Assembly (NCBI GenBank): GCA_963716985.1
Contig: OY970323.1
Location: forward strand, 64,001 to 128,000
Direction: 5' to 3'
Source of the DNA: an uncultured bacterium
Lineage (GTDB): Bacteria; Chlamydiota; Chlamydiia; Chlamydiales; SM23-39
Length of the DNA: 64,000 bases
Shown: positions 30,380 through 64,000 of the stretch, piece by piece
Position numbering within the stretch: position 1 is the first letter of the stretch
How the letters are laid out: the number at the start of each line of letters is the position of its first letter
Position numbers and translations under genes: made by a program
The notes under the pieces: model-generated
What the model was told of the DNA's origin: nothing
Database searches by the model: none
Seen by the model: only the letters and a program-made list of their open reading frames with translations

Positions 30380-30960
30380 TTCTTTGTTATATAATCTAAT
30401 ATAATCTTATATGGTTGAAAATGTAGGTATTGGTATAGGGAAATTGTATGGCGTGGCATGAGGCGCACACGAACCGGACGGGAAAAGTCCGTCCGGGATC
30501 GTTTAACCGTCCATCGATTTTGGTAATCAGCAAAGACCTCATCTGTTCCTGCGGAGTTAAGGGCCAGAAGGGATGTTTGCCTGCTGAGAAAATCGAGCAG
30601 CGAAAAATCTGCGCAGGAGCAACGCATCGATGTCTGCCTCTGAATAGAGGCCAATCATTAGGTATATTTTAACCAAAGAAAAAGGTGTTTTTAGGATGCT
30701 TCCGGTGATTTCAATATACCTCAAGCGGCTTGGGATGGCCAACTTATCAGTCTAGTGCTCTGTCATAGTTAAAATTTAGGATTATAAGTTTGGCAACGGT
30801 CGGCATAAACTCAAGTCAATTTATCCTAAAATTAAAGAATGGCAGAGCACTAGACTTTTTGAAGCGTTTACGTGAGGCAGCATTTGGCATAAAAAACCAT
30901 TGCTTCTTTGTTATATAATCTAATATAATCTCATATAGTTGAAATTGCAGGTATTGGTAT
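30380..30960 (+). repeat. 57-bp direct repeat (30380-30436 and 30904-30960) of the fic upstream region
   Basis: 53/57 identical by eye; copy 1 has ATA where fic has ATG. Confidence 0.85.
30755..30850. mobile_element. 96-bp MITE, copy 2
   Basis: Same as 683-778 except three substitutions near the right end; TA duplicated in CTAG. Confidence 0.9.
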
Positions 30961-32032
30961 GGCAAAAACCCATCGTTTTGAGCAAAGGATTGCTTCTATT
31001 TCTCCTGAAATTTGGTCTAAAATTGCACAGATTGATGAATTAAAAGGCCAATGGATTGCGGGAGTTAACTTAAGTCCTCAAGTTTTAGGACGGCTCAAAC
31101 GTTCTGTATTAATTACTTCCTCTGGCGCTTCCACTCGCATTGAAGGAGCCAGGCTTTCTGATGAGGACGTAGAGAAACTTATGCGTGGGATCGATATGCA
31201 AAAGTTTACAGATCGCGACAAAGAGGAGGTAAGGGGATATTTTGAATTATTGGAAAATATTTTTAACTCATGGAAGTCCGTTAAATTTTCCGAAAATGCG
31301 ATTAAACATTTGCACAAAGAGCTTTTGAAATATGTGAAAAAAGATGCAATCCATCGAGGAGATTATAAGAAAGGAGAAAACAAAGTGCATAGGATTGATG
31401 CAGCGGGCAAGTCTGTTGGTGTGCTTTTTAACACAACGCCGGCGTATCTCACTCCAAAAGAGATGCAGGAATTGGTGGAATGGACGCAAGAATCTCTGTT
31501 AAAGAAGAAATACCATCCACTGGCTATCATAGGCAATTTTATCGTTGAGTTTTTGCAAATTCACCCATTTCAGGATGGGAATGGCCGCCTGAGCCGCATT
31601 TTGACCAATCTGCTTTTGCTTCAATCGGGCTATTTGTATATACCCTATATTTCGCATGAAAAGTTGATTGAAGATAACAAGCCGGACTATTACATGGCTT
31701 TGCGAAAGAGCCAAAAAACCTTTAAATCTAAACATGAAAATATTGTGCCCTGGCTGGATTTTTTCTTGACGATCTTCTTTGGCCAATCAAAAATGGCTCT
31801 CGAATTACTATCTCGAGAAAATGTAGAGAAAATTCTATCGGTTAAACAATTGATTGTCTGGCAGTATATGCAAACGGTTGATGAAGCGACACCTGGTGAA
31901 ATTGCAGAAGGTACAAAAGTGGCAAGACCTACAATCAATCAAGCGCTTGATAAATTAATCCGTCTCAAAAAAGTCGAACGCATGGGTCTTGGTCGCAGCA
32001 CAAGGTATCGTATTTTGATTAATAAAAATTGA
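30959..32032 (+). CDS. Fic-domain protein with C-terminal HTH
   Basis: HPFQDGNGRLSR; N-terminal autoinhibitory STRIEG. Confidence 0.92.
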   Translation: MAKTHRFEQRIASISPEIWSKIAQIDELKGQWIAGVNLSPQVLGRLKRSVLITSSGASTRIEGARLSDEDVEKLMRGIDMQKFTDRDKEEVRGYFELLENIFNSWKSVKFSENAIKHLHKELLKYVKKDAIHRGDYKKGENKVHRIDAAGKSVGVLFNTTPAYLTPKEMQELVEWTQESLLKKKYHPLAIIGNFIVEFLQIHPFQDGNGRLSRILTNLLLLQSGYLYIPYISHEKLIEDNKPDYYMALRKSQKTFKSKHENIVPWLDFFLTIFFGQSKMALELLSRENVEKILSVKQLIVWQYMQTVDEATPGEIAEGTKVARPTINQALDKLIRLKKVERMGLGRSTRYRILINKN

Positions 32033-32115: not shown

Positions 32116-32967
32116 TCAATTCCCAATTTCTTTATCAGGCGTTGTTTGTGTTATTGCGGGCGGTAAATAATTTTCTCTAGAGACTACTTTTTTCTGAGTT
32201 TTTTCTTCCAGCTCTATTCGTGCCTTTTTTGCGATATTACCACCTGTTTTTGCGGCAGTTTTGTTTTCGACCATGCCAGCTGCATCAGTGCTTTCAGCTA
32301 TTTGCCTTGTAGAGAGTTCGGCCAGAGCGGTAAAGATTAGCTCGGCTTCGCTCATGTGATCGCGTAGGTTTTGGGTTTTCAATCCTTTGAGATCTTTGTG
32401 TTGTTTTACTGATATACCCGCCCATTCTTGATGAATGATGTTAGTGAGGATTGCAAATTCTCGTGTCTCTTTAATGTCATGGTCTTTCCAATAATCGGTG
32501 AGTTTATTGCGCGTCTCTTGACCCATCATGCGCTGTTGAATCCATTTTTCACTTCGTCCATGTTTCTGCCAGGTTTCTCTAGCTCTATCCAACGATCTTT
32601 CTGGATCAGTCATTTCTTGTATGCGTTCATACCCTACTTTTGCCAGCCAAAGTTTTATCGGCTCTGCTTTTGGACTGGGGATTGATTGGATCAGTCGTAA
32701 TACGGTTTCAGCATTGGCAACATCTGTGAGATATTTTTTACCGTCAGCGGCTTCCAATTTCAGTCGCTTACAATTTGTAAGCGACTGACTGCCTTCTTTA
32801 TTGAGTCTGGTTTTTAAAACGTTCCAGTAGTTTCTAGCTGCCTGAAAATCAGATTGTTGAGTCAATATCTGAACGATATCTATGACGGAAAAATACCAGG
32901 TTTCCGTTTCTTCGTCATACAGGCGACGTACTTTGTAGTCCTCAAAAAGGATCAAGTCATTTTTCAT
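32116..32967 (-). CDS. Bro-N / phage antirepressor-like DNA-binding protein
   Basis: WYFSVIDIV, RLIQSIPSPKAEP, NLRDHM. Confidence 0.85.
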   Translation of the reverse strand: MKNDLILFEDYKVRRLYDEETETWYFSVIDIVQILTQQSDFQAARNYWNVLKTRLNKEGSQSLTNCKRLKLEAADGKKYLTDVANAETVLRLIQSIPSPKAEPIKLWLAKVGYERIQEMTDPERSLDRARETWQKHGRSEKWIQQRMMGQETRNKLTDYWKDHDIKETREFAILTNIIHQEWAGISVKQHKDLKGLKTQNLRDHMSEAELIFTALAELSTRQIAESTDAAGMVENKTAAKTGGNIAKKARIELEEKTQKKVVSRENYLPPAITQTTPDKEIGN

Positions 32968-33049: not shown

Positions 33050-33150
33050 CAAAATATTTCCGTATTTTCCCATAAAGAACCTTCTTCCGACACTTTGGAA
33101 TGAATACAACTTGGGGGGTCCACCGGTCAAACCAGTGGCGTACCTATCGG
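33050..33150 (-). pseudogene. IS200-like tnpA remnant with terminal hairpin
   Basis: VVFIPKCRKKVLYGKIRKY on minus strand; hairpin at 33120-33138 matches 11057-11075. Confidence 0.7.
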
Positions 33151-33217
33151 CAGTTATTTTTTTACGATCCCTTAGCGAAGAAATACCCAAAGGCGCCTGT
33201 CGAGTGTTTTTTGACTA

Positions 33218-33428
33218 GTGCTCTGTCATTAAAATTTGCGCTCTACGCACCCGTTGTGATGTTCCCTTGAGTTTTTTGATTACCTCTTCGAGCTGACTTC
33301 GTTCGTCTGGTGAAAGGCGAACAATATATTTTTTTTTCATGATTGTTACCATTTTTGTTAGTAAAGGAAGGAAATGGTAGCAAAAATTTTAATGCTTGTA
33401 ACTCTAAATTTTAACTATGACAGAGCAC
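33218..33428 (-). mobile_element. 211-bp internally deleted IS630 element
   Basis: Same TIRs as the MITEs; encodes IS630 N-terminus MKKKYIVRLSPDERSQLEEVIKKLKGTSQRVRRAQIL. Confidence 0.85.
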
Positions 33429-33445
33429 TAGCCAGATGGTAAGCA

Positions 33446-34333
33446 ATGTCTAAACTTCCATACGTTTTTCTTGCTCTCCCGCATGAGTTTTTGACGGAGG
33501 ATTTTTTAAAAGATCCTGTCATGATGCGCTTTGTTGTATGGATGTTCAAACGTATCTCTCCCAACTCTTCGTTGGTTCCTTTGAAGGGAATGAGCAAGCA
33601 GCTGCTTCTCGATCCATTTGAATTCATGTTTGGTAGAGAAAGATGCGCTTTGGCCGCGGGCATCTCCCTCAAAAATGCACGTACAAGGCTGGAACAGCTA
33701 ATCGGCCTTGGATATATCAAAAAGGTGGCCGGCAAAGGGGCCAGCACTTATTCGGTTTATTGCCTAGAGACGGGAGCTCTTCGTCAGAGTGTTAACGGCC
33801 AGCAAAATGAACAGCAGCTAGAACAACAGACCGGCCAGCGAACGGGCCACAATCTAGAAGCGCAGATCCCAGATCTTAAAATTATAAAAGAGACGCCTAA
33901 CGTTATCTTGAAAACGGTCGACAGGTCGCCTTTTTCAGACAAACAGAAAAGGGATCTTCAAGGATTGCTTGCATATTGCCAAGATAAGGAGCTTCGGATT
34001 TCAGAGCGCGCCTTGAGAAGATGGATTCGTCTCTATGAATCGGAGCGTATAACGGATCATCTCTCATTGTTGCTAAAGGGGGTCGAAGGAATTAAAAAAC
34101 CTGAGGCATGGATGGAGGTGGCCTTGAAAGAAAATTATTCTGGTCAGAATAGCAACATCAAAGTGAATCGGCTTTTTACAGAGGGATTTGTGCGAAGAAA
34201 TAATTGGACTGATATCAAAATAACGCAATCCTACTGCACTCACCCGCCTTCCGGCAAAGATTACTCGTTTAAATTGCCTCCAAGATTTTCGGGGAATGTT
34301 GGTCGATTGCTTCGAGCAATACAGCCAAAATTA
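33446..34333 (+). pseudogene. putative phage-type replication initiator, frameshifted near 34283
   Basis: Paralog of 54078-54968; 2 nt shorter at CCTCCAAGATTTTC versus CCTCCAGAAGGTTTTC. Confidence 0.7.
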
Positions 34334-34344
34334 GGAAGGAAAGC

Positions 34345-34827
34345 TTGGAAGCAAAGATCAAATCTCCTGAAAATTCAGGAAAAATACAGGCGAAGGGAAA
34401 ATATAAGAAGGGATGCTCAGGCAATCCGAATGGAAAGCCAAAAGGCGCGCGAAATAAAGCCACCCTGGCAGCAGAAGCCCTTTTAGAAGGTTCTTTAGAC
34501 AAAATCTGCAAGAAAGTCGAAGAAGAGGCTTTAAACGGAAACATGCAGGCCGCAAAAATGATCTTGGAGAGATTTTTGCCGCCCAGAAAAGATCGATGCA
34601 TCGAAATCGCCCTCCCCTCGATAGACACCTTCAAAGATGTGCTCAATGCCGTTGGATTTATCGTCAATGCAGTAGGGAAGGGCAAGATCACTCCTTCTGA
34701 GGGAGAATTGCTCGCTAAAACGGTAGAAAGCTATTCAAAGGCTCTAGAGGCTTGCGAATTCGAATCCAGACTAAAGAGCTTAGAAGAAAATCTAAATGAT
34801 AGGGGTAAACATGAAACTAGCAAATAG
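34345..34827 (+). CDS. DUF5681-domain protein
   Basis: KGCSGNPNGKPKG; TTG start where the paralog has ATG. Confidence 0.75.
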   Translation: MEAKIKSPENSGKIQAKGKYKKGCSGNPNGKPKGARNKATLAAEALLEGSLDKICKKVEEEALNGNMQAAKMILERFLPPRKDRCIEIALPSIDTFKDVLNAVGFIVNAVGKGKITPSEGELLAKTVESYSKALEACEFESRLKSLEENLNDRGKHETSK

Positions 34828-35032
34828 AAAACGGGTGGAGGTGTTAGAAAAGGCTTGTAATCCAGAGAGGGGGAAACCCTCTTATGCCTTGGTCATATAC
34901 AGCCCTGAAATATCAGATCAAATTTCTGGACTTGATGTAGATGCTGATTTTGTAGTGGCTTTGCCTGATAATGGAAGAGGCGATCTCAGCGAGGAAATAC
35001 CCGAAGGAGGACACAAGGTGTTTTTTGATTGA
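34811..35032 (+). CDS. conserved 73-aa hypothetical protein of the element core
   Basis: Near-identical paralog at 55445-55666. Confidence 0.75.
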   Translation: MKLANRKRVEVLEKACNPERGKPSYALVIYSPEISDQISGLDVDADFVVALPDNGRGDLSEEIPEGGHKVFFD

Positions 35033-36015: not shown

Positions 36016-36849
36016 TTATTTTGAATGATAAATCCATGAGAAAATATCGGGCAAATGTCCCCAAAAGTACTCGAATGGTCGGAGATCTTTCACCTGATGG
36101 TGCAGCATATTTTTCCATTCGGATAAAAACTCCGATTTTTGAGGATGTTGCTCAATCGTTATCAGGTTGGGCATTGGCATTTTTTTAAAGGCGCATTTGC
36201 CTTTGAGTGATTCTAAGAGTTTGGCTATATCGGTAAGGCGATGTCGATCTTGGTAAAGATGAACGACGTCATACAGATCCCGAGGACGGGCTCGTTCTGC
36301 AAGAGCACGCAGCTTCTCAGCAAAAATCTCTTCATAGGAATAACTTAAAATTTGTGGCACAACGCTTGGCCGATCAGAATAGTCATGAAAAATCACTCGC
36401 TTTTCAGGCTTGAGCACAATTTGTTCGTCAGCTGTGAGATCGAGTTTAATAGAAGGATAGGGAACTGGCTGTTTCAATGGGCCTCGATAGGACAGCTTAC
36501 CTTGCACCGACAGGCTGCGATGAGGGTCTAGGGAGATCAGATTTTCAGGAATTTCAATCCCCGACTGATCATAGACCCACTGCGCGATCTCTTTTAAGAT
36601 AGGCCGCAGTGCTTCTTCTTTCATTTGCTGAGAATCCAGTAGAGTGAAGTCCAAATCTTCCGAAAATCGATAGTGATTAAAAAAGCATTTTTTAAGGCAT
36701 GTGCCACCTTTAAAAACCCACGAATCTCTCGTTTGCGGATGATTTTGGATGCCGATCAGCATCCATCCCAAAACATAATCTTTCTCAATAGTGGAAGACT
36801 GTAATCCAAACTCTTTTGCTTTTCGCGAAATTTCAAATTTATTAATCAT
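36016..36849 (-). CDS. AbiEii-family nucleotidyltransferase toxin
   Basis: IEKDY, FKGGTCLKK, RFSEDLDF, EKLRAL, RDLYD. Confidence 0.92.
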   Translation of the reverse strand: MINKFEISRKAKEFGLQSSTIEKDYVLGWMLIGIQNHPQTRDSWVFKGGTCLKKCFFNHYRFSEDLDFTLLDSQQMKEEALRPILKEIAQWVYDQSGIEIPENLISLDPHRSLSVQGKLSYRGPLKQPVPYPSIKLDLTADEQIVLKPEKRVIFHDYSDRPSVVPQILSYSYEEIFAEKLRALAERARPRDLYDVVHLYQDRHRLTDIAKLLESLKGKCAFKKMPMPNLITIEQHPQKSEFLSEWKNMLHHQVKDLRPFEYFWGHLPDIFSWIYHSK

Positions 36850-37646
36850 TCTTTTAGTCCTTCAGGAATCCATAATTTCCATTTTTTGATGAGACGCTTG
36901 CCCTTGGACGAAGGATCTAATTGTGAATTTCCTTCGCTAAGGTGTCCTAGACAATATGCAATCCAATTAACTTCTTGCGGCTTTATTTTCGACAAAATGA
37001 ATCCTAATCTTTTGAATATTGTTTTGTTTTTCATCTTGTCTGTGTATTGAACTAATATGTTTAAATCGCAATTGCTTGAGGCTAGGTATTGTTGGAACAA
37101 ATCAATCACGGAACGAATCCCTCCTCCAGTGGCAGGATCATCCAACATATCGATGATTGTTTTATGAGGATCGGATACTTGGACTTTCATTTGATCTTTC
37201 CAGATGGTCTTGAGTCCAAACATTTTGTCGGGCGCTGATTTTTTTATCAAAAATGCCAATCCTGCAACAAATTGCCCTTTCTGATTTAGGCGTCGAGAGG
37301 TAAAGACGATGGTCGATTCGAAAATCTGTTCGGTGAGACCCCAATACTGGGCCGCAGACCATCCTCCGATATAGCAGGGAGAAAAGATTTGAGAGGCTAT
37401 TATCCATGGATCGAGAGGGCCGCCATCGGGAGTTTCTGCAGCTATGTCTACTGGGAAATATAGCCCCCGCCTGACTCTTCGCAGCCAGCCATTTTTTGCC
37501 CATGAGGACAGATACAGTCTTGCCTGCTCCCTTGAGACGTTTAATGTTTCTGCTACCAAACTTACTGATATGCAACCTTTTGAATTGCGAAGCACCTCTG
37601 AAAGTCTCTTACGAGATAATTTGCCCAGCCCCGCCAACTCATCCAT
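36846..37646 (-). CDS. AbiEi-family antitoxin / transcriptional regulator
   Basis: wHTH with RVRRGLY; YIGGWSAA.YWGLTEQ; KTIIDMLD; ATGA overlap with the toxin. Confidence 0.88.
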   Translation of the reverse strand: MDELAGLGKLSRKRLSEVLRNSKGCISVSLVAETLNVSREQARLYLSSWAKNGWLRRVRRGLYFPVDIAAETPDGGPLDPWIIASQIFSPCYIGGWSAAQYWGLTEQIFESTIVFTSRRLNQKGQFVAGLAFLIKKSAPDKMFGLKTIWKDQMKVQVSDPHKTIIDMLDDPATGGGIRSVIDLFQQYLASSNCDLNILVQYTDKMKNKTIFKRLGFILSKIKPQEVNWIAYCLGHLSEGNSQLDPSSKGKRLIKKWKLWIPEGLKE

Positions 37647-37773: not shown

Positions 37774-38541
37774 CTATTCTTGATCTCGGAGGTGTTTTCG
37801 GACAGCTGCCCGATAGTTGCAAAAATCGCAGGATTCTTTCGGCTCTGGACATATTGGCTCTTCAAGACAATTTCGAATCTGGAATAGGGTCGACTCTACC
37901 CAGGAGTCATCCCCGGTGTAAGGAATAATGGAAATCGAAAATTCGAGTTTTCCTTCGAACCCCTCTTTAGAAGTATCTCCATTGCAATAGACGAAATAGC
38001 CGGTGTTCGACACCTTGAAGTCTTTATGCCTCAAAAGCCACTGATAAACTTCCATCTGGTTTTTGTAAGATTGGCGATATTCCTCATCAAGCGTTATTTC
38101 TTTACTGGTACTCGTGGCCTTGTAATCGACGACAATCAATTCTCCAGCAGGGGTAACCCACAAATCATCCACGGCCCCGCTGACCAGAAAATTCGAGGCT
38201 TCGTGCAAATATTGGACTCCTTTGAAATTTTGACGCCATGCATCGAGGTCGGCGTGGGCGAAAGGAATGGCGTTGATCCCATACTTGACCATCAGGGGAT
38301 GCGGTTCCCCTCTAACCCTGTAAATATCAAATTCCTTTTTTAAGAGCGTGTCGACCGCCGTGTTCAAAGTAAAAGGCAAGGAGCCGGGGTGACCTGTACC
38401 ACACCGTCTATCGAGGTAAAAGCAGCATGGGCAGCTAAGAAAATCTTGGATTTTTGAACGACTGAGTTTGAAAGGTTTCTTTTGCCCCTTCGTAAATAAA
38501 TTTCTTGATCTTTGCGGAGTGTATAAACTCATTATTTTCAT
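37774..38541 (-). CDS. PD-(D/E)XK RecB/Cas4-like nuclease, copy 1
   Basis: LSRS, CPCCF, GAVDD, VVDYKAT, QMEVY, C-terminal C..C. Confidence 0.85.
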   Translation of the reverse strand: MKIMSLYTPQRSRNLFTKGQKKPFKLSRSKIQDFLSCPCCFYLDRRCGTGHPGSLPFTLNTAVDTLLKKEFDIYRVRGEPHPLMVKYGINAIPFAHADLDAWRQNFKGVQYLHEASNFLVSGAVDDLWVTPAGELIVVDYKATSTSKEITLDEEYRQSYKNQMEVYQWLLRHKDFKVSNTGYFVYCNGDTSKEGFEGKLEFSISIIPYTGDDSWVESTLFQIRNCLEEPICPEPKESCDFCNYRAAVRKHLRDQE

Positions 38542-38734: not shown

Positions 38735-40189
38735 ATGTTCGAACAAACGTTCAAAAACATTGACGATATTCTTCACAAAGATGCCGGCTGTTCCAGCGAG
38801 CTGGACTACACTGAGCAGACTTCATGGCTCCTATTTTTGAAATATTTAGACGCGCTAGAAAACGATAAAGCGATGGAGGCTGAGTTAAGCGGAAAAACAC
38901 ATCCTCACATTCTTGAAACCGCTTATCGCTGGGGAAGTTGGGCTGCGCCGAAAGGCAAAGATGGAAAGATTGATCACAATGTGGCCCTAACCGGAGACGA
39001 CTTGCTGGTTTTCGTGAATCAGAAGCTTTTCCCCTACTTAGTTGGATTCAAATCCAAAGCGACGGGTCCGAATACCATCGAATACAAGATCGGGGAGATT
39101 TTCGGGGAAATAAAAAATCGCATCCAGAGTGGCTACAACCTGCGCGAAATCGTTGATCGCATTGATGAACTGCAATTCCGCTCGCAGACAGAGAAGCATG
39201 AATTGTCTCACCTCTACGAAGCCAAGATCAAGAACATGGGCAACGCCGGGCGCAATGGTGGTGAGTATTACACTCCTCGCCCGCTCATCCGCGCCATAGT
39301 AAAAATAGTGCAGCCGAAGATCGGTGAAACAATCTATGACGGTGCAGTCGGTTCAGCAGGCTTTTTGTGCGAGGCATTCGATTACCTAAGGTCAAAGGGT
39401 AACCTCACCACAAAAGATCTCACCACGCTCCAGACGAGCACTTTCTATGGTAAAGAGAAAAAACCTCTTGCCTATGTCATCGCAATCATGAACATGATCC
39501 TGCATGGCATTGAGGCTCCAAACATCTTGCGCACCAATACGCTATCTGAGAATCTTGCCGACATTCAGGAAAAGGATCGCGTGGACGTGATCCTCGCCAA
39601 TCCGCCCTTCGGCGGCAAAGAACGTAAGGAAGTCCAACAAAACTTCTCCATTCGCACTGGCGAAACAGCCTTTCTATTCCTTCAGCACTTCATCAAGATG
39701 CTTAAGTCTGGTGGCCGAGCTGGAATAGTCATCAAAAACACTTTTCTTTCCAATCCTGACAACGCTTCAGTGAGTCTACGCAAACTCTTGCTAGAAAACT
39801 GTAATCTGCACACCGTGCTCGACTGTCCTGGCGGCACGTTTCAAGGGGCTGGTGTAAAAACCGTAGTACTCTTCTTCGAAAAAGGCACAAAAACGCGGAA
39901 AACGTGGTTCTACCAGCTAGACCCCTGCCGCAACCTCGGTAAAACCAATCCGCTCAACGATGCCGATCTCGCCGAGTTCATTGAATTGCAGAAGACCTTT
40001 GTCGAATCGCCCAAGAGCTGGAGTGCGGATGTTAATAGCATTGACCAGATGACTTTTGACCTCTCTGTGAAAAACCCGAATAGCGGCGAGGCGGTGACTT
40101 ACCGTAGTTCAACCGAGATTTTGGATGAGATTTCCACACTGGATGATGAGAGCGCAGAGGTACTAGCGAACATCAGGGGGCTGCTATGA
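38735..40189 (+). CDS. hsdM: type I R-M methyltransferase subunit
   Basis: GEYYTPR, GSAGFL, LANPPFGG. Confidence 0.95.
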   Translation: MFEQTFKNIDDILHKDAGCSSELDYTEQTSWLLFLKYLDALENDKAMEAELSGKTHPHILETAYRWGSWAAPKGKDGKIDHNVALTGDDLLVFVNQKLFPYLVGFKSKATGPNTIEYKIGEIFGEIKNRIQSGYNLREIVDRIDELQFRSQTEKHELSHLYEAKIKNMGNAGRNGGEYYTPRPLIRAIVKIVQPKIGETIYDGAVGSAGFLCEAFDYLRSKGNLTTKDLTTLQTSTFYGKEKKPLAYVIAIMNMILHGIEAPNILRTNTLSENLADIQEKDRVDVILANPPFGGKERKEVQQNFSIRTGETAFLFLQHFIKMLKSGGRAGIVIKNTFLSNPDNASVSLRKLLLENCNLHTVLDCPGGTFQGAGVKTVVLFFEKGTKTRKTWFYQLDPCRNLGKTNPLNDADLAEFIELQKTFVESPKSWSADVNSIDQMTFDLSVKNPNSGEAVTYRSSTEILDEISTLDDESAEVLANIRGLL

Positions 40190-54063: not shown

Positions 54064-54077
54064 CCGGACGACAAGCT

Positions 54078-54968: not shown

Positions 54969-54978
54969 GAAAGGAAGC

Positions 54979-55461: not shown

Positions 55462-55666
55462 AAAACGGGTGGAGGAGCTAGAAAAGGCTTGTAAACCAGG
55501 GAGGGGGAAACCCTCTTATGCCTTGGTCATATACAGCCCCGAAATATCAGATCAAATTTCTGGACTTGATGTAGATGCTGATTTTGTAGTGGCTTTGCCT
55601 GATAATGGAAGAGGCGATCTCGGCGAAGAGATACCCAAAGGAGAGTACAGGGTGTTTTTTGGCTAA
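55445..55666 (+). CDS. conserved 73-aa hypothetical protein of the element core
   Basis: Paralog of 34811-35032. Confidence 0.75.
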   Translation: MKPANRKRVEELEKACKPGRGKPSYALVIYSPEISDQISGLDVDADFVVALPDNGRGDLGEEIPKGEYRVFFG

Positions 55667-55728: not shown

Positions 55729-56616
55729 GTGGAAAAAAATGATGATAATAGCCTGATTCCTAGCAAACTGTCATTTGAAGATTTAAAAAAGATCAATCAG
55801 CATGGGATTGAGTATTGGAGTGCCAGGAGTTTACAGCCGTGCCTCGGATACTCTCAATGGAGGCGGTTCGAGAACGCTATCCAAAAGGCCATAGAGTCTT
55901 GCAAGCAATCTGGAAATGACCCAGACCATCACTTTGCCGGCGCCGGCAAACAGATCAATCTTGGAAAAGGGGCTACTCAAATTGTTGAAGATTACCATCT
56001 TTCGCGTTTTGCTTGCTATCTTATCGCCCAAAATGGAGACGCTAGAAAACCAGAAATTGCCCATGCGCAGAAGTATTTCGCGATTCAAACTCGTCGCCAA
56101 GAACTTACCGATGCCGCCCTCGCTGATTTTGAGCGCTTAGAGTTGCGGAAACAAACTTCCCAGGATTTCAAAGCTCTCTCTGGAGCAGCTCGCGATGCTG
56201 GTGTCCAAAATAAAATGTTCGGGATCTTCCATGATGCAGGGTACAAAGGACTTTACGGAGGGCTTGGATCGGATGCAATCAAAGCCCGTAAAGGAATTGA
56301 TCCTAAGGAACAGCTGATGGACCGGATGGATAGAACCGAGCTGGCGGCTAATCAGTTTCGGATGACTCAAACACGAGAAAAGCTCAAACGGGAAGGCATC
56401 AGGAATCAAAGAGATGCTATCGAGGCTCACGAAGCAGTTGGAAAAGAAGTTCGGGCTGCTATTGCTAAAATCGGCGGTACAGCTCCAGAAAACATTCCTC
56501 CTGCTGAACACATCAAAAAAGTAGAAAAACGTTTAAAAAAAATTAAGCCAAAGTTGCTTCTTGATGAGAAGGATTCGGGATTGCAGCGACAAAATTCTCT
56601 CGAAAATCCTGAGTGA
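55729..56616 (+). CDS. dinD: DNA damage-inducible protein D-like (Bro-like N-terminus)
   Basis: EYWSAR, LSRFACYLIAQNGD, YFAIQTR, GYKGLYGG, ELAANQFR. Confidence 0.88.
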   Translation: MEKNDDNSLIPSKLSFEDLKKINQHGIEYWSARSLQPCLGYSQWRRFENAIQKAIESCKQSGNDPDHHFAGAGKQINLGKGATQIVEDYHLSRFACYLIAQNGDARKPEIAHAQKYFAIQTRRQELTDAALADFERLELRKQTSQDFKALSGAARDAGVQNKMFGIFHDAGYKGLYGGLGSDAIKARKGIDPKEQLMDRMDRTELAANQFRMTQTREKLKREGIRNQRDAIEAHEAVGKEVRAAIAKIGGTAPENIPPAEHIKKVEKRLKKIKPKLLLDEKDSGLQRQNSLENPE

Positions 56617-56715: not shown

Positions 56716-57432
56716 ATGTGTCAGATAGAGATGAACTCTTCTTGGTTAGATCAGTGGTGGAAATTTTGGCCGATGTGGGCTCCCCTTCTTGCTGCTTGGT
56801 GGAATCTGAGAATGGAGATTAAGGCCAATAGAAAAGCATCATTAGAAATGTTTAATCTTCAGGAGAGAAAAAATGACGCCCGAACCAATATTCCTGTAGT
56901 GATTGAGATATTGGACGATCTGGCGGATTTACAGCAAGCATTCATATTTCGAGGTCGATTCATCCCTGGTCTAGAGCATCGATGTCCAGATATTCAATTT
57001 AAAGACGGTGGAACCGAGGGGCAAATATCTGTCGCAGAAAGAACCCATCAGTTGCGTTTGATTGCGCGGAGAATGCTTACCAATTGCCGGAAGGTCATTT
57101 TTCTAATGCCAAAGAATGTTATGCCGGAAACGGTTAAGGTGTGTAGGTCTATCAGAGATGCTTGGACTTCAAAAGAACCGGGAAAGAAATATGCCTACGA
57201 AGTTAAGATAAACGCAATTGGATCTTTATTGCAGAATGACTGCGATCATTCGGGATTATCCATGGATGCCCAGCAACAATTCCATCAGTCGCGCCAAAAA
57301 ATCTGCGACACTGACGAAAAGTCATGCGATGCGATTGCTGCGGAATTGGGAATATTTCACTCCGATCTAGAAGCTCGCGTAGAAGAAGAGTTTCCTACTT
57401 ATGCGTGTGAAAGCCCTGGGGGAAAATCTTGA
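56716..57432 (+). CDS. hypothetical protein with Trp-rich hydrophobic N-terminus (start uncertain)
   Basis: Long ORF in the cargo slot. Confidence 0.55.
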   Translation: MCQIEMNSSWLDQWWKFWPMWAPLLAAWWNLRMEIKANRKASLEMFNLQERKNDARTNIPVVIEILDDLADLQQAFIFRGRFIPGLEHRCPDIQFKDGGTEGQISVAERTHQLRLIARRMLTNCRKVIFLMPKNVMPETVKVCRSIRDAWTSKEPGKKYAYEVKINAIGSLLQNDCDHSGLSMDAQQQFHQSRQKICDTDEKSCDAIAAELGIFHSDLEARVEEEFPTYACESPGGKS

Positions 57433-58172
57433 ACATGTTTGAGTGCCGCTTGTCGGTAACGACAAAAAGGACAGGCATTGTTGGAGGGCGGGCATTGTTC
57501 TCGTTCTAAGCATGCGCGAATTTGCAATAGGGTGGGTTCGATCCAGCTGTCATCGCCTTCGTAAGGAAGAACTGAGATCGAGAATTCAAGCTTGCCGCCA
57601 AATTCTTCTCTAGAATCATCGCCATTACAGTAAACAAAATACCCTGTTTTTACGACTGCAAAGCCTTTGCATCGAAGAAGCCATTGGTAGATTTCCATCT
57701 GGTTTTTATAGGATTTTCGATAGTCTTCATCCAGCGAAATCTCTTTCTTGGTGCTAGTCGCCTTATAATCCACAACAATCAACTCCCCAGTTGGGGTGAT
57801 CCAGAGATCATCAACTGCACCCGTAATGATGAAATTCGTTGGTTCATGCAGATATTGAATACCCTTTAAGTTCATTCGCCAATCGTCAAGCTCGGGGTGT
57901 GAAAACGGGATCGCATCAATCTCATGGTTAATAAGAAGGGGATGGGGTTTTCCTTGTAACCGATAGATATCAAATTCTTTTTTTAAAAGAGTGTCGACGG
58001 CTGTGTTGAGAGTGAACGGGAACCCGGGAGGCTGAGCAGTCCCGCACTTGCGGTCGAGATAGAAACACCGAGGACAGTCAAGAAAATTCTGTATTTTTGA
58101 GCGGCTCAGTTTAAAAGGACGCGACTCTTCTGAGGAAAATAAATTTCTAGATCGATTTGGATTGTAATTCAT
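57399..58172 (-). CDS. PD-(D/E)XK RecB/Cas4-like nuclease, copy 2
   Basis: Close paralog of 37774-38541 with the same motifs. Confidence 0.85.
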   Translation of the reverse strand: MNYNPNRSRNLFSSEESRPFKLSRSKIQNFLDCPRCFYLDRKCGTAQPPGFPFTLNTAVDTLLKKEFDIYRLQGKPHPLLINHEIDAIPFSHPELDDWRMNLKGIQYLHEPTNFIITGAVDDLWITPTGELIVVDYKATSTKKEISLDEDYRKSYKNQMEIYQWLLRCKGFAVVKTGYFVYCNGDDSREEFGGKLEFSISVLPYEGDDSWIEPTLLQIRACLEREQCPPSNNACPFCRYRQAALKHVQDFPPGLSHA

Positions 58173-58384: not shown

Positions 58385-60133
58385 ATGAATCAACCAACAC
58401 TCTCATCTCTTATTTGGGCTATTGCCGATTTATTGCGTGGAGATTACAAGCAGTCCGATTATGGCAAAGTGATTCTCCCCTTCACTATGTTGCGTCGCTT
58501 GGATTGTGTGTTAGCCCCGACTAAAGACACTCTATTGGCCGAATTTTCAAGGCTACAGAAAAGCGGAGTGGATCCTGAATTGTTTTTGCAACGCAAATCC
58601 GGCCACAAATTTTACAACACGTCCCCCTTGGACATGAAAAAGCTCATGGATGACCAAGACCACATCAAAGAGAACCTCTTTAATTACATTCAGAATTTTT
58701 CAGCTTCTATACGGGACATCTTTGAGCGATTTGAATTTGCAACCCAAATCGAGCGTCTTCAGAAATGTGGCTTGTTGTACCGCGTAACCGAACAATTTTC
58801 CAAATTCAATCTGCATCCCGATGCGCTGGACAATGCGCAGATGGGGCTTGTTTTTGAGGAACTTCTTCGCAAATTTGCCGAACTTTCAAATGAGACTGCC
58901 GGAGAGCACTTTACTCCCCGTGAAGTAATCAAGCTAATGGTCAACCTGCTTTTCATCGAAGACAATGAGATCTTGACCAAGCCCGGCGTAGTGCGAACCA
59001 TTTACGATCCGACCGCGGGAACGGGCGGAATGTTGTCAGTGGCCAGCGAGCATTTGAGGGGGCTTAATCCCCAGGCCAGCCTTACGGTGTTCGGGCAGGA
59101 ACTCAACCCTGAATCCTACGCCATCTGCAAAGCCGACATGCTCATCAAGGGTCAGGACGTCGCTAACATCATTTGTGGCAACACCCTTTCCGAAGACGGC
59201 CACCTCGACAAAAAATTCGACTACATGCTTGCGAATCCCCCATTTGGCGTCGAATGGAAAAAAGTCGAAAAAGAGGTTCGCAATGAACAGGAGACGCAAG
59301 GGTATAACGGGCGTTTCGGCCCCGGTCTGCCGCGAGTCAGCGATGGCTCACTCTTGTTCTTACTGCATCTTATTTCGAAAATGCGACCAGCAAAAGACGG
59401 GGGTAGCAGACTGGGCATCGTTCTTAACGGCTCACCGCTTTTCACGGGAGGGGCAGGGTCGGGCGAGAGCGAAATCCGCCGCTACGTGCTCGAGAATGAT
59501 TTGGTAGAGGCCATTATTGCTCTGCCTACCGATATGTTTTATAACACGGGTATTTCCACTTACGTCTGGATTCTCTCTAACCGCAAGCCAGAACACCGCA
59601 AAGGCAAGGTACAACTGATCGATGCAGGAAACTTTTGGCAAAAGATGAGAAAGAGCCTGGGCAGCAAGCGCAAAGAAATGAATGACGAGCAAATCGAAGA
59701 GATCACACGGCTCTTCGGTGGTTTTGAGGAAGCTGAACGAGATGGCGCGCTAATTAGCAAAATTTTCCGAAATGAGGATTTTGGATATAGGACCATTACT
59801 GTTGAAAGGCCACTACGCGATGAAGCCGGACAAATTGTAATGGGGGTCAAGGGCAAGCAGAAAGGCAAGCCGCAAGCCGACAATAATCTGCGCGACACCG
59901 AGAATGTGCCTTTGGACGAGAATGTGGAAGCCTATTTCAAGAGGGAGGTTCTTACTCACGCAGCGGATGCCTGGATTGACCATGAGAAAACTAAGGTTGG
60001 CTATGAGATTTCATTCAATCGCTATTTCTACGTATTTAAGCCGCCCCGCCAATTAGGTGAGATCGATGCCGAGCTAAAGGATGTTACTAACCGCATTCTA
60101 GTCATGCTCAAAGAAACAGGAGTATCGGCGTGA
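58385..60133 (+). CDS. hsdM: type I R-M methyltransferase subunit
   Basis: GEHFTPR, DPTAGTGGM, LANPPFG. Confidence 0.95.
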   Translation: MNQPTLSSLIWAIADLLRGDYKQSDYGKVILPFTMLRRLDCVLAPTKDTLLAEFSRLQKSGVDPELFLQRKSGHKFYNTSPLDMKKLMDDQDHIKENLFNYIQNFSASIRDIFERFEFATQIERLQKCGLLYRVTEQFSKFNLHPDALDNAQMGLVFEELLRKFAELSNETAGEHFTPREVIKLMVNLLFIEDNEILTKPGVVRTIYDPTAGTGGMLSVASEHLRGLNPQASLTVFGQELNPESYAICKADMLIKGQDVANIICGNTLSEDGHLDKKFDYMLANPPFGVEWKKVEKEVRNEQETQGYNGRFGPGLPRVSDGSLLFLLHLISKMRPAKDGGSRLGIVLNGSPLFTGGAGSGESEIRRYVLENDLVEAIIALPTDMFYNTGISTYVWILSNRKPEHRKGKVQLIDAGNFWQKMRKSLGSKRKEMNDEQIEEITRLFGGFEEAERDGALISKIFRNEDFGYRTITVERPLRDEAGQIVMGVKGKQKGKPQADNNLRDTENVPLDENVEAYFKREVLTHAADAWIDHEKTKVGYEISFNRYFYVFKPPRQLGEIDAELKDVTNRILVMLKETGVSA

Positions 60134-61467
60134 GTTTTCAGCACTATGAGAAGTATACGGGCAGCGGAATGTGGTTGGGAGAAATTCCCGAACATTGGGA
60201 TATTTCCAAAAGCAAGTTGATTTATCGCGAGGTAACGGATCTTTCAACTACGGGCAGCGAGGATCTTTTATCCGTCTCAGAATATTACGGAGTAAAGAGA
60301 CGAACTGAAGTTATGGAGAATGACGATCATATTTCTCGCGCCGAATCACTTGAAGGATATAAAAAATGCAATGCTAATGACTTAGTAATTAACATTATGC
60401 TTGCGTGGAAGCGTGGATTGGGTGTTAGCGACTTTAATGGTATCGTTAGCCCTGCTTATTGCGTGTTTCGTCCTATTAATGAAAATTTTATCAACCCCAA
60501 ATATTTTCATTATTTACTTCGTACGGACCTCTATACCGGTTTTTTTAAGAGTCGATCCACAGGTGTCATTGATTCAAGGTTGCGCCTTTACCCCGACGTT
60601 TTCGGATCAATCGAGATCATATTTCCACCCAAGCCGGAGCAGGATAACATCGTATGTTTTCTTGACCGCGAAATCGCCAAAATCGATGATCTCATCATTC
60701 AGCAGCAGCAACTCATCGAACTTCTGAAAGAAAAGCGCCAAGCCATCATTTCGCACGCCGTTACCAGAGGGCTGAATCAATATGCCCCGATGAAAGAAAG
60801 CGGAGTGGAATGGCTAGGTGTAGTGCCAGAGCATTGGGCACTCTCAATACTGGGCTTTGAATCATGGGTACGAGCTCGCTTGGGATGGAAAGGATTAAAG
60901 GCCGAAGAGTATGTCGATAATGGATTCATTTTCCTAGCCACACCAAATATCAAAGGAATCGACATCGACTTTGAAAATGTCAACTACATAAACGAGCAGC
61001 GTTATGAAGAATCTCCTGAAATTAAACTACGTGAAGGTGACGTATTATTGGCAAAAGATGGCTCCACATTAGGGATAGTAAACGTCATTCGTCGCTTAGA
61101 CCGGCCCTCTACTGTGAATAGCTCGATTGCAGTTATCACCCCACACCAAAACCTACACGGAATATTTCTTTATTACCTATTCCAGAGTAGCTTTATGAAA
61201 AATATCATTGAAATAACTAAGGGAGGAATGGGAGTCCCTCATCTCTTTCAAGAAGATATAAATAAATTCCGTATTCCTATGCCCCCATTTCATGAGCAAG
61301 TCTCCATCGCCACTCACCTCGATCGCCAGACCGCCAAGATCGACGCGCTCACCGATGCCGCTTGCAATGCAATCACCCTGCTTCAAGAACGACGAACCAC
61401 TCTCATCTCTTCTGCCGTCACAGGCAAGATCGACGTGCGCGGAATCACTCAACAGGAAGTCTCATGA
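60130..61467 (+). CDS. hsdS: type I R-M specificity subunit
   Basis: Two TRDs; PPKPEQ and PPFHEQ; AVTRGL, AVTGKI. Confidence 0.93.
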   Translation: MSFQHYEKYTGSGMWLGEIPEHWDISKSKLIYREVTDLSTTGSEDLLSVSEYYGVKRRTEVMENDDHISRAESLEGYKKCNANDLVINIMLAWKRGLGVSDFNGIVSPAYCVFRPINENFINPKYFHYLLRTDLYTGFFKSRSTGVIDSRLRLYPDVFGSIEIIFPPKPEQDNIVCFLDREIAKIDDLIIQQQQLIELLKEKRQAIISHAVTRGLNQYAPMKESGVEWLGVVPEHWALSILGFESWVRARLGWKGLKAEEYVDNGFIFLATPNIKGIDIDFENVNYINEQRYEESPEIKLREGDVLLAKDGSTLGIVNVIRRLDRPSTVNSSIAVITPHQNLHGIFLYYLFQSSFMKNIIEITKGGMGVPHLFQEDINKFRIPMPPFHEQVSIATHLDRQTAKIDALTDAACNAITLLQERRTTLISSAVTGKIDVRGITQQEVS

Positions 61468-64000
61468 GCCTGCACCGTGAAATCAATTTCGAAGACGAGA
61501 TCTGTGACTATCTCGCAGCCCACGGTTGGCTATATGCCGAAGGAGACGCAGCCCGATATGACCGCTCGCGCGCCCTCTTCTCTGAAGATGTGATTGCATG
61601 GATTCAGTCTACTCAGCCAAAGATATGGGAGGCGCTCAGCAAAAACCACGGCGTACAAGCCGCCGAGATTTTGCTCGGACGCTTGCGCCAGGAGTTGGAT
61701 ACGCGTGGTGCCCTTGATGTGTTGCGTCATGGCTTTGAAATGGTAGGCCTCCGGCAACCGATTCAGCTCGCGCAATTTAAACCTGCGCACACTTTGAATG
61801 CCGACATTTTGGCCAGATATGATGCCACCTATCTGCGCGTAGTACGCCAAGTGCGATATTCGCTGCACAACGAAAATTGCATTGACCTGGTGTTGTTCCT
61901 CAATGGAATTCCCACGGCAACGGTTGAACTTAAGACTGATTTTACGCAGGACATCGAAGATGCAGTCGATCAATATCGGTTCGATCGTTTGCCGAAACTC
62001 AAGGGACATGCTGCTGAGCCATTGCTCTCCTTTCCGAGCGGCGCACTTGTCCATTTTGCCGTAAGCAACAGCGAAGCGCGCATGACCACAAAACTCGAAG
62101 GTCCGGCTACGCGTTTTTTGCCATTCAATCAAGGCAGTCCCGATGGTGGGGCGGGAAATCCCCTGAATGATCGCGGTCACCGTACATCTTATCTTTGGGA
62201 ACGTATCTGGGAGCGAGATAGCTGGCTGGAAATTCTAGGCCGATATCTTGTGACGCGTAAGAATAGTAAAAAACAAATCGAAAACATCATCTTCCCTCGC
62301 TTTCACCAGTTGGATGCTACACGCAAGCTGGTTGCCGCCGTACTCCATGAGGGGCCTGGTGGAAAATACCTAATCCAGCACTCTGCCGGTTCGGGCAAGA
62401 CTAATTCGATTGCATGGTCAGCTCATCTCTTGGCAGATCTCCATGATACGAACAACAAAAAACTATTCGATTCAGTTCTGGTCGTGTCAGACCGAACGGT
62501 TATCGACGCTCAGCTGCAAGAAGCAATCTTTGAGTTTGAGCGCACATTAGGTGTTGTAGCCACCATCACAGGGGACAGCTCCAGTAAAAGCGACGAGCTG
62601 GCAAAGGCGCTGTCAGACAACAAAAAAATCATTACTTGTACAATTCAGACATTTCCCTATGCGCTCAAGACTGTGCAAAAGCTGGCCTTGACCCAAGGTA
62701 AACGATTCGCTGTAATCGCGGATGAGGCGCACTCCTCGCAAACAGGAGAAACTGCAACCAAGCTGAAGGCTGTGCTGTCAGCCGAAGAATTGCAGGAATT
62801 ACAGGACGGGGGAACGTATAGCATTGAGGACGTCCTGGCATCGCAGATGTCGGCGCGTGCGAAAAACACTGGCATCACCTTCGTTGCTTTTACTGCTACG
62901 CCCAAGGCGAAGACATTGGAGCTATTCGGTCGCCGACCCCATCTCGATCGCCCAGCGGGACCGGACAATCTCCCCGCACCGTTTCATGTCTATTCGATGC
63001 GCCAGGCCATTGAAGAACATTTTATCCTCGACGTGCTCAAAAACTATACTCCTTACAAACTTGCCTACAAACTGACGCATGACGGCATCGAATACGACGA
63101 ACATCAAGTTGAGCAGAGCGCTGCCAAGAAAAAGATTTTTCGCTGGGTCAAGCTACACCCGTACAACATCTCCCAAAAAGTACACATCGTGGTGGAACAC
63201 TTCCGCGAAAATGTGGCGCCCTTACTGAATGGCGAAGCCAAGGCCATGGTCGTTGTGGGCAGTCGCGCCGAAGCCGTGCGCTGGAAATTAGAGATGGATC
63301 GATACATTCAGGATCGATCTTACGCGATTGGCACCCTGGTCGCCTTTTCCGGGGAAATAGTCGATGCAGATCTCGGCCCCGTCTCAGAAACCAGCAAGGC
63401 ACTGAACCCAAATCTTCATGGCCGTGATATACGCGAGGCTTTTGGGACTGCTGAATATCAAATCTTGTTGGTTGCTAACAAATTCCAGACAGGATTCGAC
63501 CAAGACATGCTCTGCGGTATGTATGTAGACAAAAGGCTGGGGGGTGTTCAGGCGGTCCAAACTCTCTCCCGTCTCAATCGGGCCCGTGTCGGAAAAGATA
63601 CAACTTATGTGCTGGATTTCGTGAATGACGTGAGGCAAATTCTCGATGCTTTCAAAACCTATCATACGACAGCTGAACTCACTGACGTCACAGATCTGAA
63701 TCTTGTATTCAATCTACGCGCCAAGCTGGATAAGGCGGGGTACTATGACGATTCAGAGGTGAATCGCGTGGTCGCCACGGCAATGGATCCGCAAGCAAAG
63801 CAATCTGACCTTATGAAAACGTTGGAGCCCGTTGCCGAGCGTCTAGTGAAACGCTACAGAGATATTCAGAATAAATTTAAAGCAGCCAAAGAGGCGGGTC
63901 GTGATGGCATGGCTGAAGAAGCTCAAAACGAACTGGATGCCATCGTTCTCTTCAAAAGCGACATGGATTCGTTTCAGCACATGTATATTTTTCTTTCTCA
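61464..64000 (+). CDS. hsdR: type I R-M restriction subunit, runs off the window
   Basis: Read manually: MSLHREINFE, VELK, QHSAGSGKT, ADEAHSSQ, FTATPK, QTGFDQ; absent from the ORF track because it has no stop in the window. Confidence 0.92.
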   Translation, partial: MSLHREINFEDEICDYLAAHGWLYAEGDAARYDRSRALFSEDVIAWIQSTQPKIWEALSKNHGVQAAEILLGRLRQELDTRGALDVLRHGFEMVGLRQPIQLAQFKPAHTLNADILARYDATYLRVVRQVRYSLHNENCIDLVLFLNGIPTATVELKTDFTQDIEDAVDQYRFDRLPKLKGHAAEPLLSFPSGALVHFAVSNSEARMTTKLEGPATRFLPFNQGSPDGGAGNPLNDRGHRTSYLWERIWERDSWLEILGRYLVTRKNSKKQIENIIFPRFHQLDATRKLVAAVLHEGPGGKYLIQHSAGSGKTNSIAWSAHLLADLHDTNNKKLFDSVLVVSDRTVIDAQLQEAIFEFERTLGVVATITGDSSSKSDELAKALSDNKKIITCTIQTFPYALKTVQKLALTQGKRFAVIADEAHSSQTGETATKLKAVLSAEELQELQDGGTYSIEDVLASQMSARAKNTGITFVAFTATPKAKTLELFGRRPHLDRPAGPDNLPAPFHVYSMRQAIEEHFILDVLKNYTPYKLAYKLTHDGIEYDEHQVEQSAAKKKIFRWVKLHPYNISQKVHIVVEHFRENVAPLLNGEAKAMVVVGSRAEAVRWKLEMDRYIQDRSYAIGTLVAFSGEIVDADLGPVSETSKALNPNLHGRDIREAFGTAEYQILLVANKFQTGFDQDMLCGMYVDKRLGGVQAVQTLSRLNRARVGKDTTYVLDFVNDVRQILDAFKTYHTTAELTDVTDLNLVFNLRAKLDKAGYYDDSEVNRVVATAMDPQAKQSDLMKTLEPVAERLVKRYRDIQNKFKAAKEAGRDGMAEEAQNELDAIVLFKSDMDSFQHMYIFLS

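Follow-up and report, generated by a model that had tools for sequence, protein, structure and literature searches.

An intact capsid-less element at a tRNA-Pro(GGG) gene, probably a PICI-like phage satellite, represents a mobile family in Chlamydiota

An array of integrated DNA in an uncultured chlamydia-related bacterium bears on the exchange of genes between families of obligate intracellular chlamydiae. In the available parts of two published accounts, plasmids and type IV secretion systems (T4SS) are the described routes of exchange, and phage terminases and a putative prophage appear only in passing (PMC7846284, PMC5010888). The original prediction for the window (the whole stretch of 64,000 nucleotides analyzed) was that satellite-like elements carrying defence cargo had accumulated in tandem at a tRNA-Pro gene.

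This tRNA-Pro site carries one intact and two decayed island copies. The intact copy, unit B (window 50868-65519, 14.65 kb), lies between two identical 53-bp copies of the tRNA-Pro(GGG) 3′ part. Its left repeat (50868-50920, minus strand), which also forms the right end of the neighboring unit A, is identical at 53 of 53 positions to the partner copy at 65467-65519. The intact minus-strand tRNA-Pro(GGG) anticipated beyond 64 kb was located at 65472-65548 (window numbering continued) and carries this partner copy, the two together spanning G000:C1:129467-129548 of the source genome (G000), where no further long copy of the repeat occurred among the matches listed. Integration of unit B was thus site-specific, with the 3′ section of this tRNA gene as the target.

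All ORFs of the compact core predicted to follow the tRNA-Pro fragment were recovered in place on the plus strand, together with an extra accessory ORF of 296 aa (51033-51923) between att and integrase, which had no family match and a 48% homolog in the same slot of genome G179. The core comprises a tyrosine integrase with an arm-binding domain and intact catalytic motifs (51895-53199), a conserved hypothetical ORF that overlaps the integrase stop and has counterparts of 66 to 82% identity in close relatives (53196-53789), an excisionase-like AlpA/HTH_17 regulator (53851-54063; PF05930, E 5e-9; PF12728), a putative replication initiator, or rep-like gene (54078-54968), a two-domain DUF5681 protein predicted from gene order in phages to be a small terminase (54979-55461; PF18932), a 73-aa ORF translationally coupled to it, with an N-terminal RxxxLE helix and a C-terminal PDN motif (55445-55666), and DinD (55729-56616; NCBIfam 358.6 bits against a cut-off of 242; PADLOC PDC-S13 match). 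DinD belongs to the cargo, along with a PD-(D/E)XK nuclease recognized by family match (57399-58172, minus strand) and an intact type I restriction-modification (R-M) system, hsdM-hsdS-hsdR (58385-64000, plus strand), whose frames are unbroken and whose hsdR stop lies 592 bp beyond the window. The stretch from the window end to the tRNA holds just the remainder of hsdR and a single 264-aa ORF that matched nothing in NCBIfam, and no structural or T4SS genes. In agreement with the predicted absence of capsid, tail, and conjugation genes, none of the 39 window ORFs scanned matched a structural phage or conjugation family.

The last host gene ahead of the accreted DNA encodes a TrmA/RlmD-like methyltransferase (29193-30371, plus strand; PF05958); the distance from its end to tRNA-Pro is 3 bp in G412 and 1.5 kb in the same-genus G063. 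The oldest part of the island carries a SoFic-like Fic protein (30959-32032, plus strand) as cargo, followed by a Bro-N protein (32116-32967, minus strand; PADLOC PDC-S13 match) with a 90% identical copy within the G377 element. The third small-ORF tail that had been proposed is a 3′-end relic of about 50 bp (33165-33216, plus strand), which aligned locally to both intact copies with scores of 41 to 52, compared with at most 41 in 2,000 random 400-nt stretches, except one score of 86. A MITE-like insertion (33217-33431), whose ends are common to a repeat of about 103 bp with more than 20 copies in the source genome, sits where the integrase, hypothetical ORF, and alpA of unit A are missing.

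Unit A is a dead older unit to the left of unit B. The expected recurrence of the rep-DUF5681-73-aa block at 33.4 to 35.0 kb was borne out, with 92.0% identity over 1602 nt (33428-35027 against 54060-55661). Its rep (33446-34486) is frameshifted by a 2-bp deletion, and DUF5681 (34345-34827) and the small coupled ORF (34811-35032), all on the plus strand, are 94% and 88% identical to the unit B copies. Downstream cargo includes an AbiEi/AbiEii type IV toxin-antitoxin pair supported by family and defence-system matches (36016-37646, minus strand), a PD-(D/E)XK nuclease 69% identical to that of unit B (37774-38541, minus strand), and a type I R-M system with an EcoEI-type R C-terminus (38735-47658, plus strand), in which hsdS and hsdR are split by IS elements (41199-43111 and 45107-47074) that are both multicopy in the source genome. 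Different cargo followed by the same nuclease/type I R-M layout had been proposed for both larger cores; the layout is indeed shared, but the R-M proteins are unlike (HsdM, 27%; HsdS, 27%; HsdR, no BLAST match) and the left system is the IS-split one. The att-proximal cargo (47734-50809) consists of two unknown ORFs, which recur in the G247 element, and a NERD-like ORF, a homolog of which adjoins tRNA-Pro in the G264, G234, and G364 elements. Integrase, AlpA, and a left att are all missing from unit A, the best degenerate att to its left scoring 28 within a background of 24 to 33. Newer arrivals push older units outward, where these decay.

Across the phylum, the DUF5681 clade was present in 53 of 401 genomes, almost always with the small ORF alongside. 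The elements form a family, as predicted; of the tandem copies, unit B alone is intact. Core homologs were linked to integrases elsewhere, with an integrase or serine recombinase at 39 of 60 chlamydial DUF5681 loci and at 21 of the 26 with full flanks. An AlpA-like gene accompanied 35 of the 60, and 49 had a replication gene, either this rep (23) or primase types (26), DUF3987 and DUF5906 primases being found in sister elements. Large terminase (TerL), portal, or capsid genes occurred at none of the 60 loci. The other ORFs there fell into clusters with 186 representatives, and the 185 of these that were scanned matched no relaxase, T4SS, or virion family. Among 26 hand-picked loci, tRNA-Pro att pairs of 53 to 67 bp enclosed integrase and DUF5681 in six other genomes (4.8 to 15.1 kb), and sites without the element were found in the genomes of relatives. 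The DUF5681 pair was present at loci that differed in integrase, replication gene, and target tRNA; at many loci it was convergent with the replication operon. The element family has moved between chlamydial families, and the high core protein identity across six host families (72 to 88%, against 36 to 54% for the neighboring housekeeping genes ispA, glmU-like, and trmA in the same genomes) indicates that it spread in compact form. The cargo can be exchanged and is frequently defensive (R-M, AbiE), but many non-defence genes occur in it across the family; the proposed swapping of defence cargo holds in part.

A small-terminase-like role for DUF5681, at first a guess, gained support from phage gene order. 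Of the 51 viral loci scored, 48 had a DUF5681-like ORF ahead of TerL. Because the large terminase usually follows DUF5681 in viral contigs, a small terminase is the most likely identity of this protein. Within one TerL family, 5 of 80 loci had the two-domain form upstream of TerL, and at one of the 5 portal and capsid genes were also present; a chlamydial contig (L224) has the order primase-DUF5681-TerL, and a contig of 8.6 kb whose terminal repeat measures 127 bp (L106) encodes integrase, scaffold, capsid, two-domain DUF5681, and a small ORF. The majority of phage matches covered the N-terminal part only, and in a Felixounavirus DUF5681 is followed by an RNA-binding gene, not TerL; the count of viral loci excludes 14 large-phage loci similar to this one. 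A PHROGs profile scan gave DUF5681 no terminase label, and fold searches returned generic helices only, with no sequence relative in the PDB.

The small coupled ORF was rejected as a split small terminase, as the PDNGR motif was absent from viral and terminase loci (L101-L243) and its homologs are stand-alone proteins: its profile retrieved 162 clusters, and all among the 150 listed were at most 108 aa except two repetitive proteins. The idea that PDNGR marks the C-terminus of phage small terminases was rejected on the same absence. An R[LIVM]xxLE-type motif stands at the start of 113 of the 150 small-ORF homologs and of 33 of the 79 large terminases in the matching family, against a background of 8%; it also occurs at the end of two-domain DUF5681. 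The profile alignment of small ORF and TerL spans only the N-terminal helix, at a low probability of 29%, the small-ORF HMM reached at best 3.5 bits against 39 TerL N-termini, inside the shuffled range, and the score of 0.01 for a predicted complex with DUF5681 is evidence neither way. Support is thus thin for the small protein mimicking the docking helix of TerL. We regard as doubtful the wider proposal that environmental chlamydiae harbour an unrecognized tailed-phage and satellite system whose islands are a main cross-family gene shuttle, with a two-part hijack of packaging by a DUF5681 small terminase and a stand-alone mini-protein mimicking the N-terminal docking helix of TerL.

The rep-like protein combines a winged helix, a disordered linker encoded by 12-nt-period repeats, and helical C-terminal domains. 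It had no Pfam match, matched phrog_186 at E 9e-4, and lay nearest in embedding to the RepA_N/HTH_36 Atlas clusters (0.95; 148 to 154 shared features). Foldseek gave no match below 1e-3, and a structure search returned tied winged-helix matches (Z 7.0 to 7.6), one an "MDR initiator". Fold class and embedding make it a putative replication initiator. With regard to a replication origin, which PICI have beside or inside rep, the exact linker motif occurs two to five times in units A and B and in L003, L004, L007, and L009, and zero to one time in L002, L005, L006, and L008.

Such an element would depend on a helper phage. No matching helper was found among Chlamydiota genomes. The source genome had no HK97-type capsid match and only a packaging remnant. 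A tailed-phage capsid family was present in 10 of 399 Chlamydiota genomes, and one tailed-phage gene set lies on a 137-kb contig that runs on into host-syntenic genes; a capsid match in G170 was rejected as a prophage, the gene being isolated. The TerL family that accompanies two-domain DUF5681 in phages was absent from all 330 Chlamydiota genomes searched for it, and in the chlamydial phage contigs inspected the gene upstream of TerL had no resemblance to DUF5681. Several TerL contigs in chlamydial bins are likely mis-binned because of their 52 to 59% GC, and only L238 of these was used as a helper candidate. No excised att joint was found in four contig sets, which says nothing on the source strain; in the sequencing runs screened for the junction, at most 0.22 of words matched in any run.

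Unit B is probably an intact capsid-less PICI-like phage satellite. AlpA would trigger excision by the integrase, and the circle would be copied by the winged-helix Rep, in place of which sister elements have primase-helicases. DUF5681 and its coupled partner may then steer the TerL of a tailed phage infecting the same cell onto element DNA. This DNA would be packaged into capsids that are not remodelled and would reach a new chlamydial cell, for instance within a shared protist host. Mixed cargo, the lack of a matching helper, and tRNA-seeded islands with tandem relics, which recall tycheposons as far as the available text describes them (10.1101/2020.12.28.424599), would also suit an integrative cargo shuttle that excises and replicates but moves by vesicles, by lysis and uptake in a shared host vacuole, or by generalized transduction, the DUF5681 pair having another or vestigial role. 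We consider this unlikely, given that the pair is kept through changes of integrase, replication gene, and target tRNA, and that DUF5681 fills the small-terminase slot in phages.

Mobilization in trans by chlamydial F-type conjugation systems is less probable still. Such systems are reported on chlamydial plasmids and islands in the available parts of PMC7846284 and PMC5010888, and the DUF5681 pair also occurs on a plasmid-sized second contig of 15.6 kb (L098); however, no relaxase family was found among the scanned neighbors, the element has no relaxase or T4SS genes of the IME/ICE kind, and genome-wide searches of the source for TraC, PF03432 relaxase, and TrwB were empty. An equally low probability attaches to ordinary prophages repeatedly degraded to an early region plus small terminase, a reading already largely refuted. 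Rep resembles phage initiators, and chlamydiae do have integrase-primase-TerS-TerL islands that lack a capsid gene, as well as a packaging remnant, but both att ends are intact around 10- to 15-kb units in five other genomes, and the uniform lack of TerL, portal, and capsid matches and the high cross-family identity likewise oppose decay.

The satellite reading suggests that host-cell-dwelling chlamydiae exchange genes, those for defence among them, as passengers of tailed viruses. With the family in about one-eighth of sampled genomes and tailed-phage gene sets in other chlamydial genomes, a second, testable exchange route can be proposed. DUF5681, little covered in the literature searched, gains a testable function as a small terminase, and the integrase-att pair, if active, is a possible genetic tool for environmental chlamydiae.

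The original prediction of a PICI/P4-type plan fits PICI but not P4. P4-like satellites share tRNA integration, AlpA, and defence cargo; unlike P4, no core ORF matched Psu, Sid, or Delta (psu-delta-sid operon) in PHROGs/Pfam. Tycheposons and marine VEIMEs, in the available parts of 10.1101/2020.12.28.424599 and PMC9618062, resemble the element in tRNA integration, island building, cargo, some small terminases, and lack of capsid, whereas cargo and a TerS-like gene together, as here, is a pairing unobserved in that part of the tycheposon account. PICMI, as far as the available text of PMC10803314 goes, has a similar core of integrase, overlapping ORF, alpA, and replication gene and no capsid remodelling, and recalls the DUF3987/DUF5906 primases of the chlamydial sister elements; the chlamydial element differs in residing at tRNAs rather than fis, being larger, having the TerS-like pair, and occurring several times per genome. 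Traits of cf-PICI (own capsid, portal, TerL, and head-tail genes) were seen at 0 of 60 loci, and neither unit B nor those loci had tail, holin, portal, or head-tail genes or the capsid morphogenesis gene that is optional in PICI and absent from the SaPI-like type B. With type B, which has SaPI-like packaging without capsid morphogenesis (PMC10085698, PMC6092414), the element shares an integrase with its own specific att site, the order integrase, AlpA regulator, putative replication gene, and predicted terminase-small-like gene, a size of 10 to 15 kb, accessory genes both downstream of the terS slot and close to int, and freedom from virion and lysis genes. It departs from PICI in its Chlamydiota host, the two-domain DUF5681 plus coupled 60- to 80-aa ORF in the terS slot, a freely exchanged replication gene, and a common convergent layout. 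The best reading is a PICI-like variant in a new host phylum, Chlamydiota.

Unit B, the intact element, occupies a tRNA-Pro site in a genome assembled as a single 2.07-Mb contig. ARAGORN found no tRNA inside the window, and the intact tRNA-Pro(GGG) that the original prediction sought beyond 64 kb was present on the minus strand at 65472-65548 (window numbering continued). An exact 53-bp repeat of its 3' part lies at 50868-50920, and these two att copies enclose 14,652 bp (50868-65519) with a GC content of 47% vs 44% for the genome. Unit B encodes, in order, a 296-aa unknown ORF, a tyrosine integrase with intact catalytic motifs, a conserved hypothetical protein, AlpA, a rep-like gene, DUF5681, a 73-aa ORF, DinD, an unknown ORF, a PD-(D/E)XK nuclease, hsdMSR, and a last unknown ORF.

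To the left, the older, decayed unit A retains a rep-DUF5681-small ORF block (33428-35027) 92% identical to that of unit B, as predicted, with a 2-bp deletion in rep. A 215-bp MITE-like insertion occupies the expected int-hyp-alpA place, and just left of it the proposed third tail was recovered as ~50 bp of small-ORF end. A short repeat (33118-33157) abuts this relic, with further copies at window position 11055 and two other genome places. Unit A cargo comprises AbiE, a nuclease 69% identical to that of unit B, and a type I restriction-modification (R-M) system only 27% identical to its unit B counterpart and interrupted by two IS elements. These (41199-43111 and 45107-47074) have eight and about five identical genome copies, respectively; the 474-aa transposase of the first has no Pfam or NCBIfam match, and the second carries DUF6399. 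Because homologs of the NERD-like ORF that ends unit A adjoin tRNA-Pro within elements of three relatives (G264, G234, and G364), we infer that unit A was most likely once in contact with the tRNA and then displaced outward by unit B. In genome G412, 3 bp separate the end of the trmA-like gene from the tRNA, one unrelated gene intervenes in the same-genus genome G063, and trmA or the glmU-like gene was found inside the 1.5-kb flank at 12 of 29 tRNA-Pro loci of relatives; ~35 kb of DNA has thus accreted at the site studied here. Tandem relics also occur elsewhere, as three att copies (G333) or DUF5681 fragments past att (G179 and G376). At the left edge of the island, a 64-bp direct repeat (89%; 30380-30443 and 30904-30967) duplicates AT-rich DNA together with the beginning of fic. 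A ~103-bp MITE-like element with terminal inverted repeats (30752-30853 and 680-786) has more than 20 near-identical genome copies, some in tandem, and outside the element array 143-bp inverted repeats (99%; 2262-2404 and 8218-8360) flank 5.8 kb of low-GC DNA.

Homologs of rep were found in 27 of 400 scored Chlamydiota genomes, being 72 to 88% identical in 12 of these 27 (source genome excluded), which span six families, and weaker in the remainder. DUF5681 proteins were found in 53 of 401 genomes; of 59 matches inspected, which include redundant loci and represent 35 distinct proteins, 53 were followed by the coupled small ORF. Among the best 80 of 172 genome loci, 60 were classed as chlamydial by title; these carried the small ORF (51 loci, five misses lying at contig ends), a replication gene (49), an AlpA-like gene (35), and, in line with the expected linkage of core homologs to integrases, an integrase or serine recombinase (39). 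The replication slot is occupied by a rep as in unit B or by DUF3987, AAA_25, D5, DUF5906, or DUF927 proteins. Two layouts were evident, one colinear and mainly at tRNA-Pro, the other convergent and at tRNA-Met, -Thr, -Leu, and others. On a plasmid-sized 15.6-kb second contig of one genome (G044), the DUF5681-small ORF pair lies downstream of a D5 primase, a helicase, and an integrase. We also scrutinized 280 further ORFs of at least 130 aa in the vicinity of the pair, scanning 185 of their 186 cluster representatives (E 1e-9). R-M, AbiE, Schlafen, RloB, and caspase-like genes were present, so the notion of swapped defence cargo held in part; transferases, transporters, and host flank genes were found too. 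Across families, identity was higher for core proteins than for most neighbouring housekeeping genes (int 80%, rep 76%, and DUF5681 83% in G264, vs 45% for ispA and 47% for the glmU-like gene; in same-genus G063, ispA is 78% and trmA 63% identical), which indicates that the family spread horizontally across chlamydial families.

To infer the role of DUF5681, we examined one GenBank record and 66 of the best 80 of 321 viral relatives; the other 14 loci, on 51-94-kb contigs, looked Felixounavirus-like and were omitted. At 51 loci a long ORF lay no more than 900 bp downstream, and at 48 of these it was a large terminase (TerL; near-duplicates counted). Most viral matches covered the N-terminal part only; full two-domain DUF5681 preceded TerL at 5 of 80 loci (four distinct) of one TerL family, one of them in a 37-kb phage that also encodes portal and capsid. 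This TerL family was found in none of 330 Chlamydiota genomes. On one chlamydial contig, a primase, a short DUF5681, and TerL are consecutive. Two 8.6-kb viral contigs with a 127-bp terminal repeat (L106 and L107) encode an integrase, scaffold, major capsid, and tail-assembly gene, with two-domain DUF5681 after the capsid gene and the small ORF also present, and are predicted to be a capsid-encoding satellite-like element. Against a terminase role, Felixounavirus DUF5681 lies upstream of an RNA-binding gene, a DUF5681 protein is reported from a phage structural proteome in the available text of PMC8954984, and no profile gave DUF5681 a terminase label. On balance, the family is quite probably a small terminase (TerS); its use for hijacking packaging in the element studied here is held with less confidence. 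At 20 loci listed from outside chlamydiae, the gene after two-domain DUF5681 is in most cases likewise a coupled ORF, whose product starts with an RLxxLE-like helix. The small ORF forms a family of its own, whose likeness to TerL N-termini is confined to one helix (score 24, against a maximum of 14 for 100 column shuffles), with none in its second half.

Candidate helpers were sought through TerL. Matches to phrog_2 occurred in 140 of 398 genomes, mostly weak, 46 in 39 genomes falling below 1e-20. Of 20 loci opened from this latter set, three were phage contigs that share one capsid family (found in 10 of 399 genomes) and also encode TerL and portal, and several were islands that combine primase, TerS-like, and TerL genes but have no capsid. 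Eight such islands (L226-L230 and L240-L242, in G252, G234, G044, G255, G146, G227, G237, and G276) encode a primase/helicase together with a complete pair of TerS-like and TerL genes, and often an integrase or recombinase as well; neither portal nor capsid was seen among the scanned ORFs of the 20-kb loci. Their TerL is 41 to 45% like that of the G284 prophage, and they appear to be a sister element type with its own whole terminase. Related tailed-phage gene sets (L231, L232, L238, L239, and L389-L391, in G395, G148, G302, G251, and G284), with portal phrog_156 and the capsid phrog_1357 family, occur in bins of several chlamydial families and are candidate tailed chlamydial phages. The 137-kb G284 contig encodes capsid, portal, a tail-fibre-like gene, and a two-piece TerL, and runs on into three genes also adjacent in the source genome (41 to 69% identity). 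Because such sets lie in chlamydial bins and that of G284 is continuous with host-syntenic genes, tailed phages appear to reach chlamydiae; none found here was tied to the element. The source genome also holds a packaging remnant (801023-810212 of its contig) with an integrase, TerL, a TerS-sized ORF, a DNA methylase, a resolvase-like ORF, and an HI1409-family gene. A further six tyrosine integrases are grouped around tRNA-Met genes at 858000-970000. Three of them show an int-hyp-small regulator-rep-like gene order that lacks DUF5681; the region also carries cargo of restriction type and, at 883-902 kb, very large synthase-like ORFs (labels by sequence appearance).

Comparative sequence evidence shows site-specific tRNA integration, a conserved family-wide plan, tandem accretion with decay, exchange of replication genes and cargo, and spread across families. 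We favour, with some reserve, a PICI-like satellite that would excise from the tRNA site, replicate through Rep, and be packaged by a helper phage's terminase directed by DUF5681. That the units are degraded prophages is improbable: TerL, portal, and capsid were found at none of the 60 chlamydial DUF5681 loci (BLAST, own reference set). A mobilisable element is equally improbable; relaxase, T4SS, and virion families were not among the 185 scanned cluster representatives, and searches of the source genome for TraC, PF03432 relaxase, TrwB, and PF05065 capsid came back empty. The structural phage or T4SS genes named as grounds for refutation thus did not materialize. A vesicle- or transduction-borne shuttle is a minor possibility, ranking above these two and well below the PICI-like satellite.

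The available text of earlier reports describes, for Protochlamydia, a single terminase as well as islands linked to tRNAs (PMC5010888), and mentions a phage gene group on two plasmids (PMC7846284). Chlamydiae do not figure in the available text of Fillol-Salom et al. (PMC6092414), the VEIME paper (PMC9618062), or the tycheposon preprint (10.1101/2020.12.28.424599), nor in the main text of de Sousa et al. (PMC10085698), whose supplement may list chlamydial hosts. A literature search with little subscription-journal coverage returned no description of this element family, which, as far as these searches go, is previously undescribed. The element is of a known kind, with predicted mobility; what is new about this PICI-like family is its host phylum and its TerS-like gene pair. 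Provided rep and DUF5681 count, unit B fills four of the five core slots that de Sousa et al. assign to PICIs, content that the available text of that study names type B.
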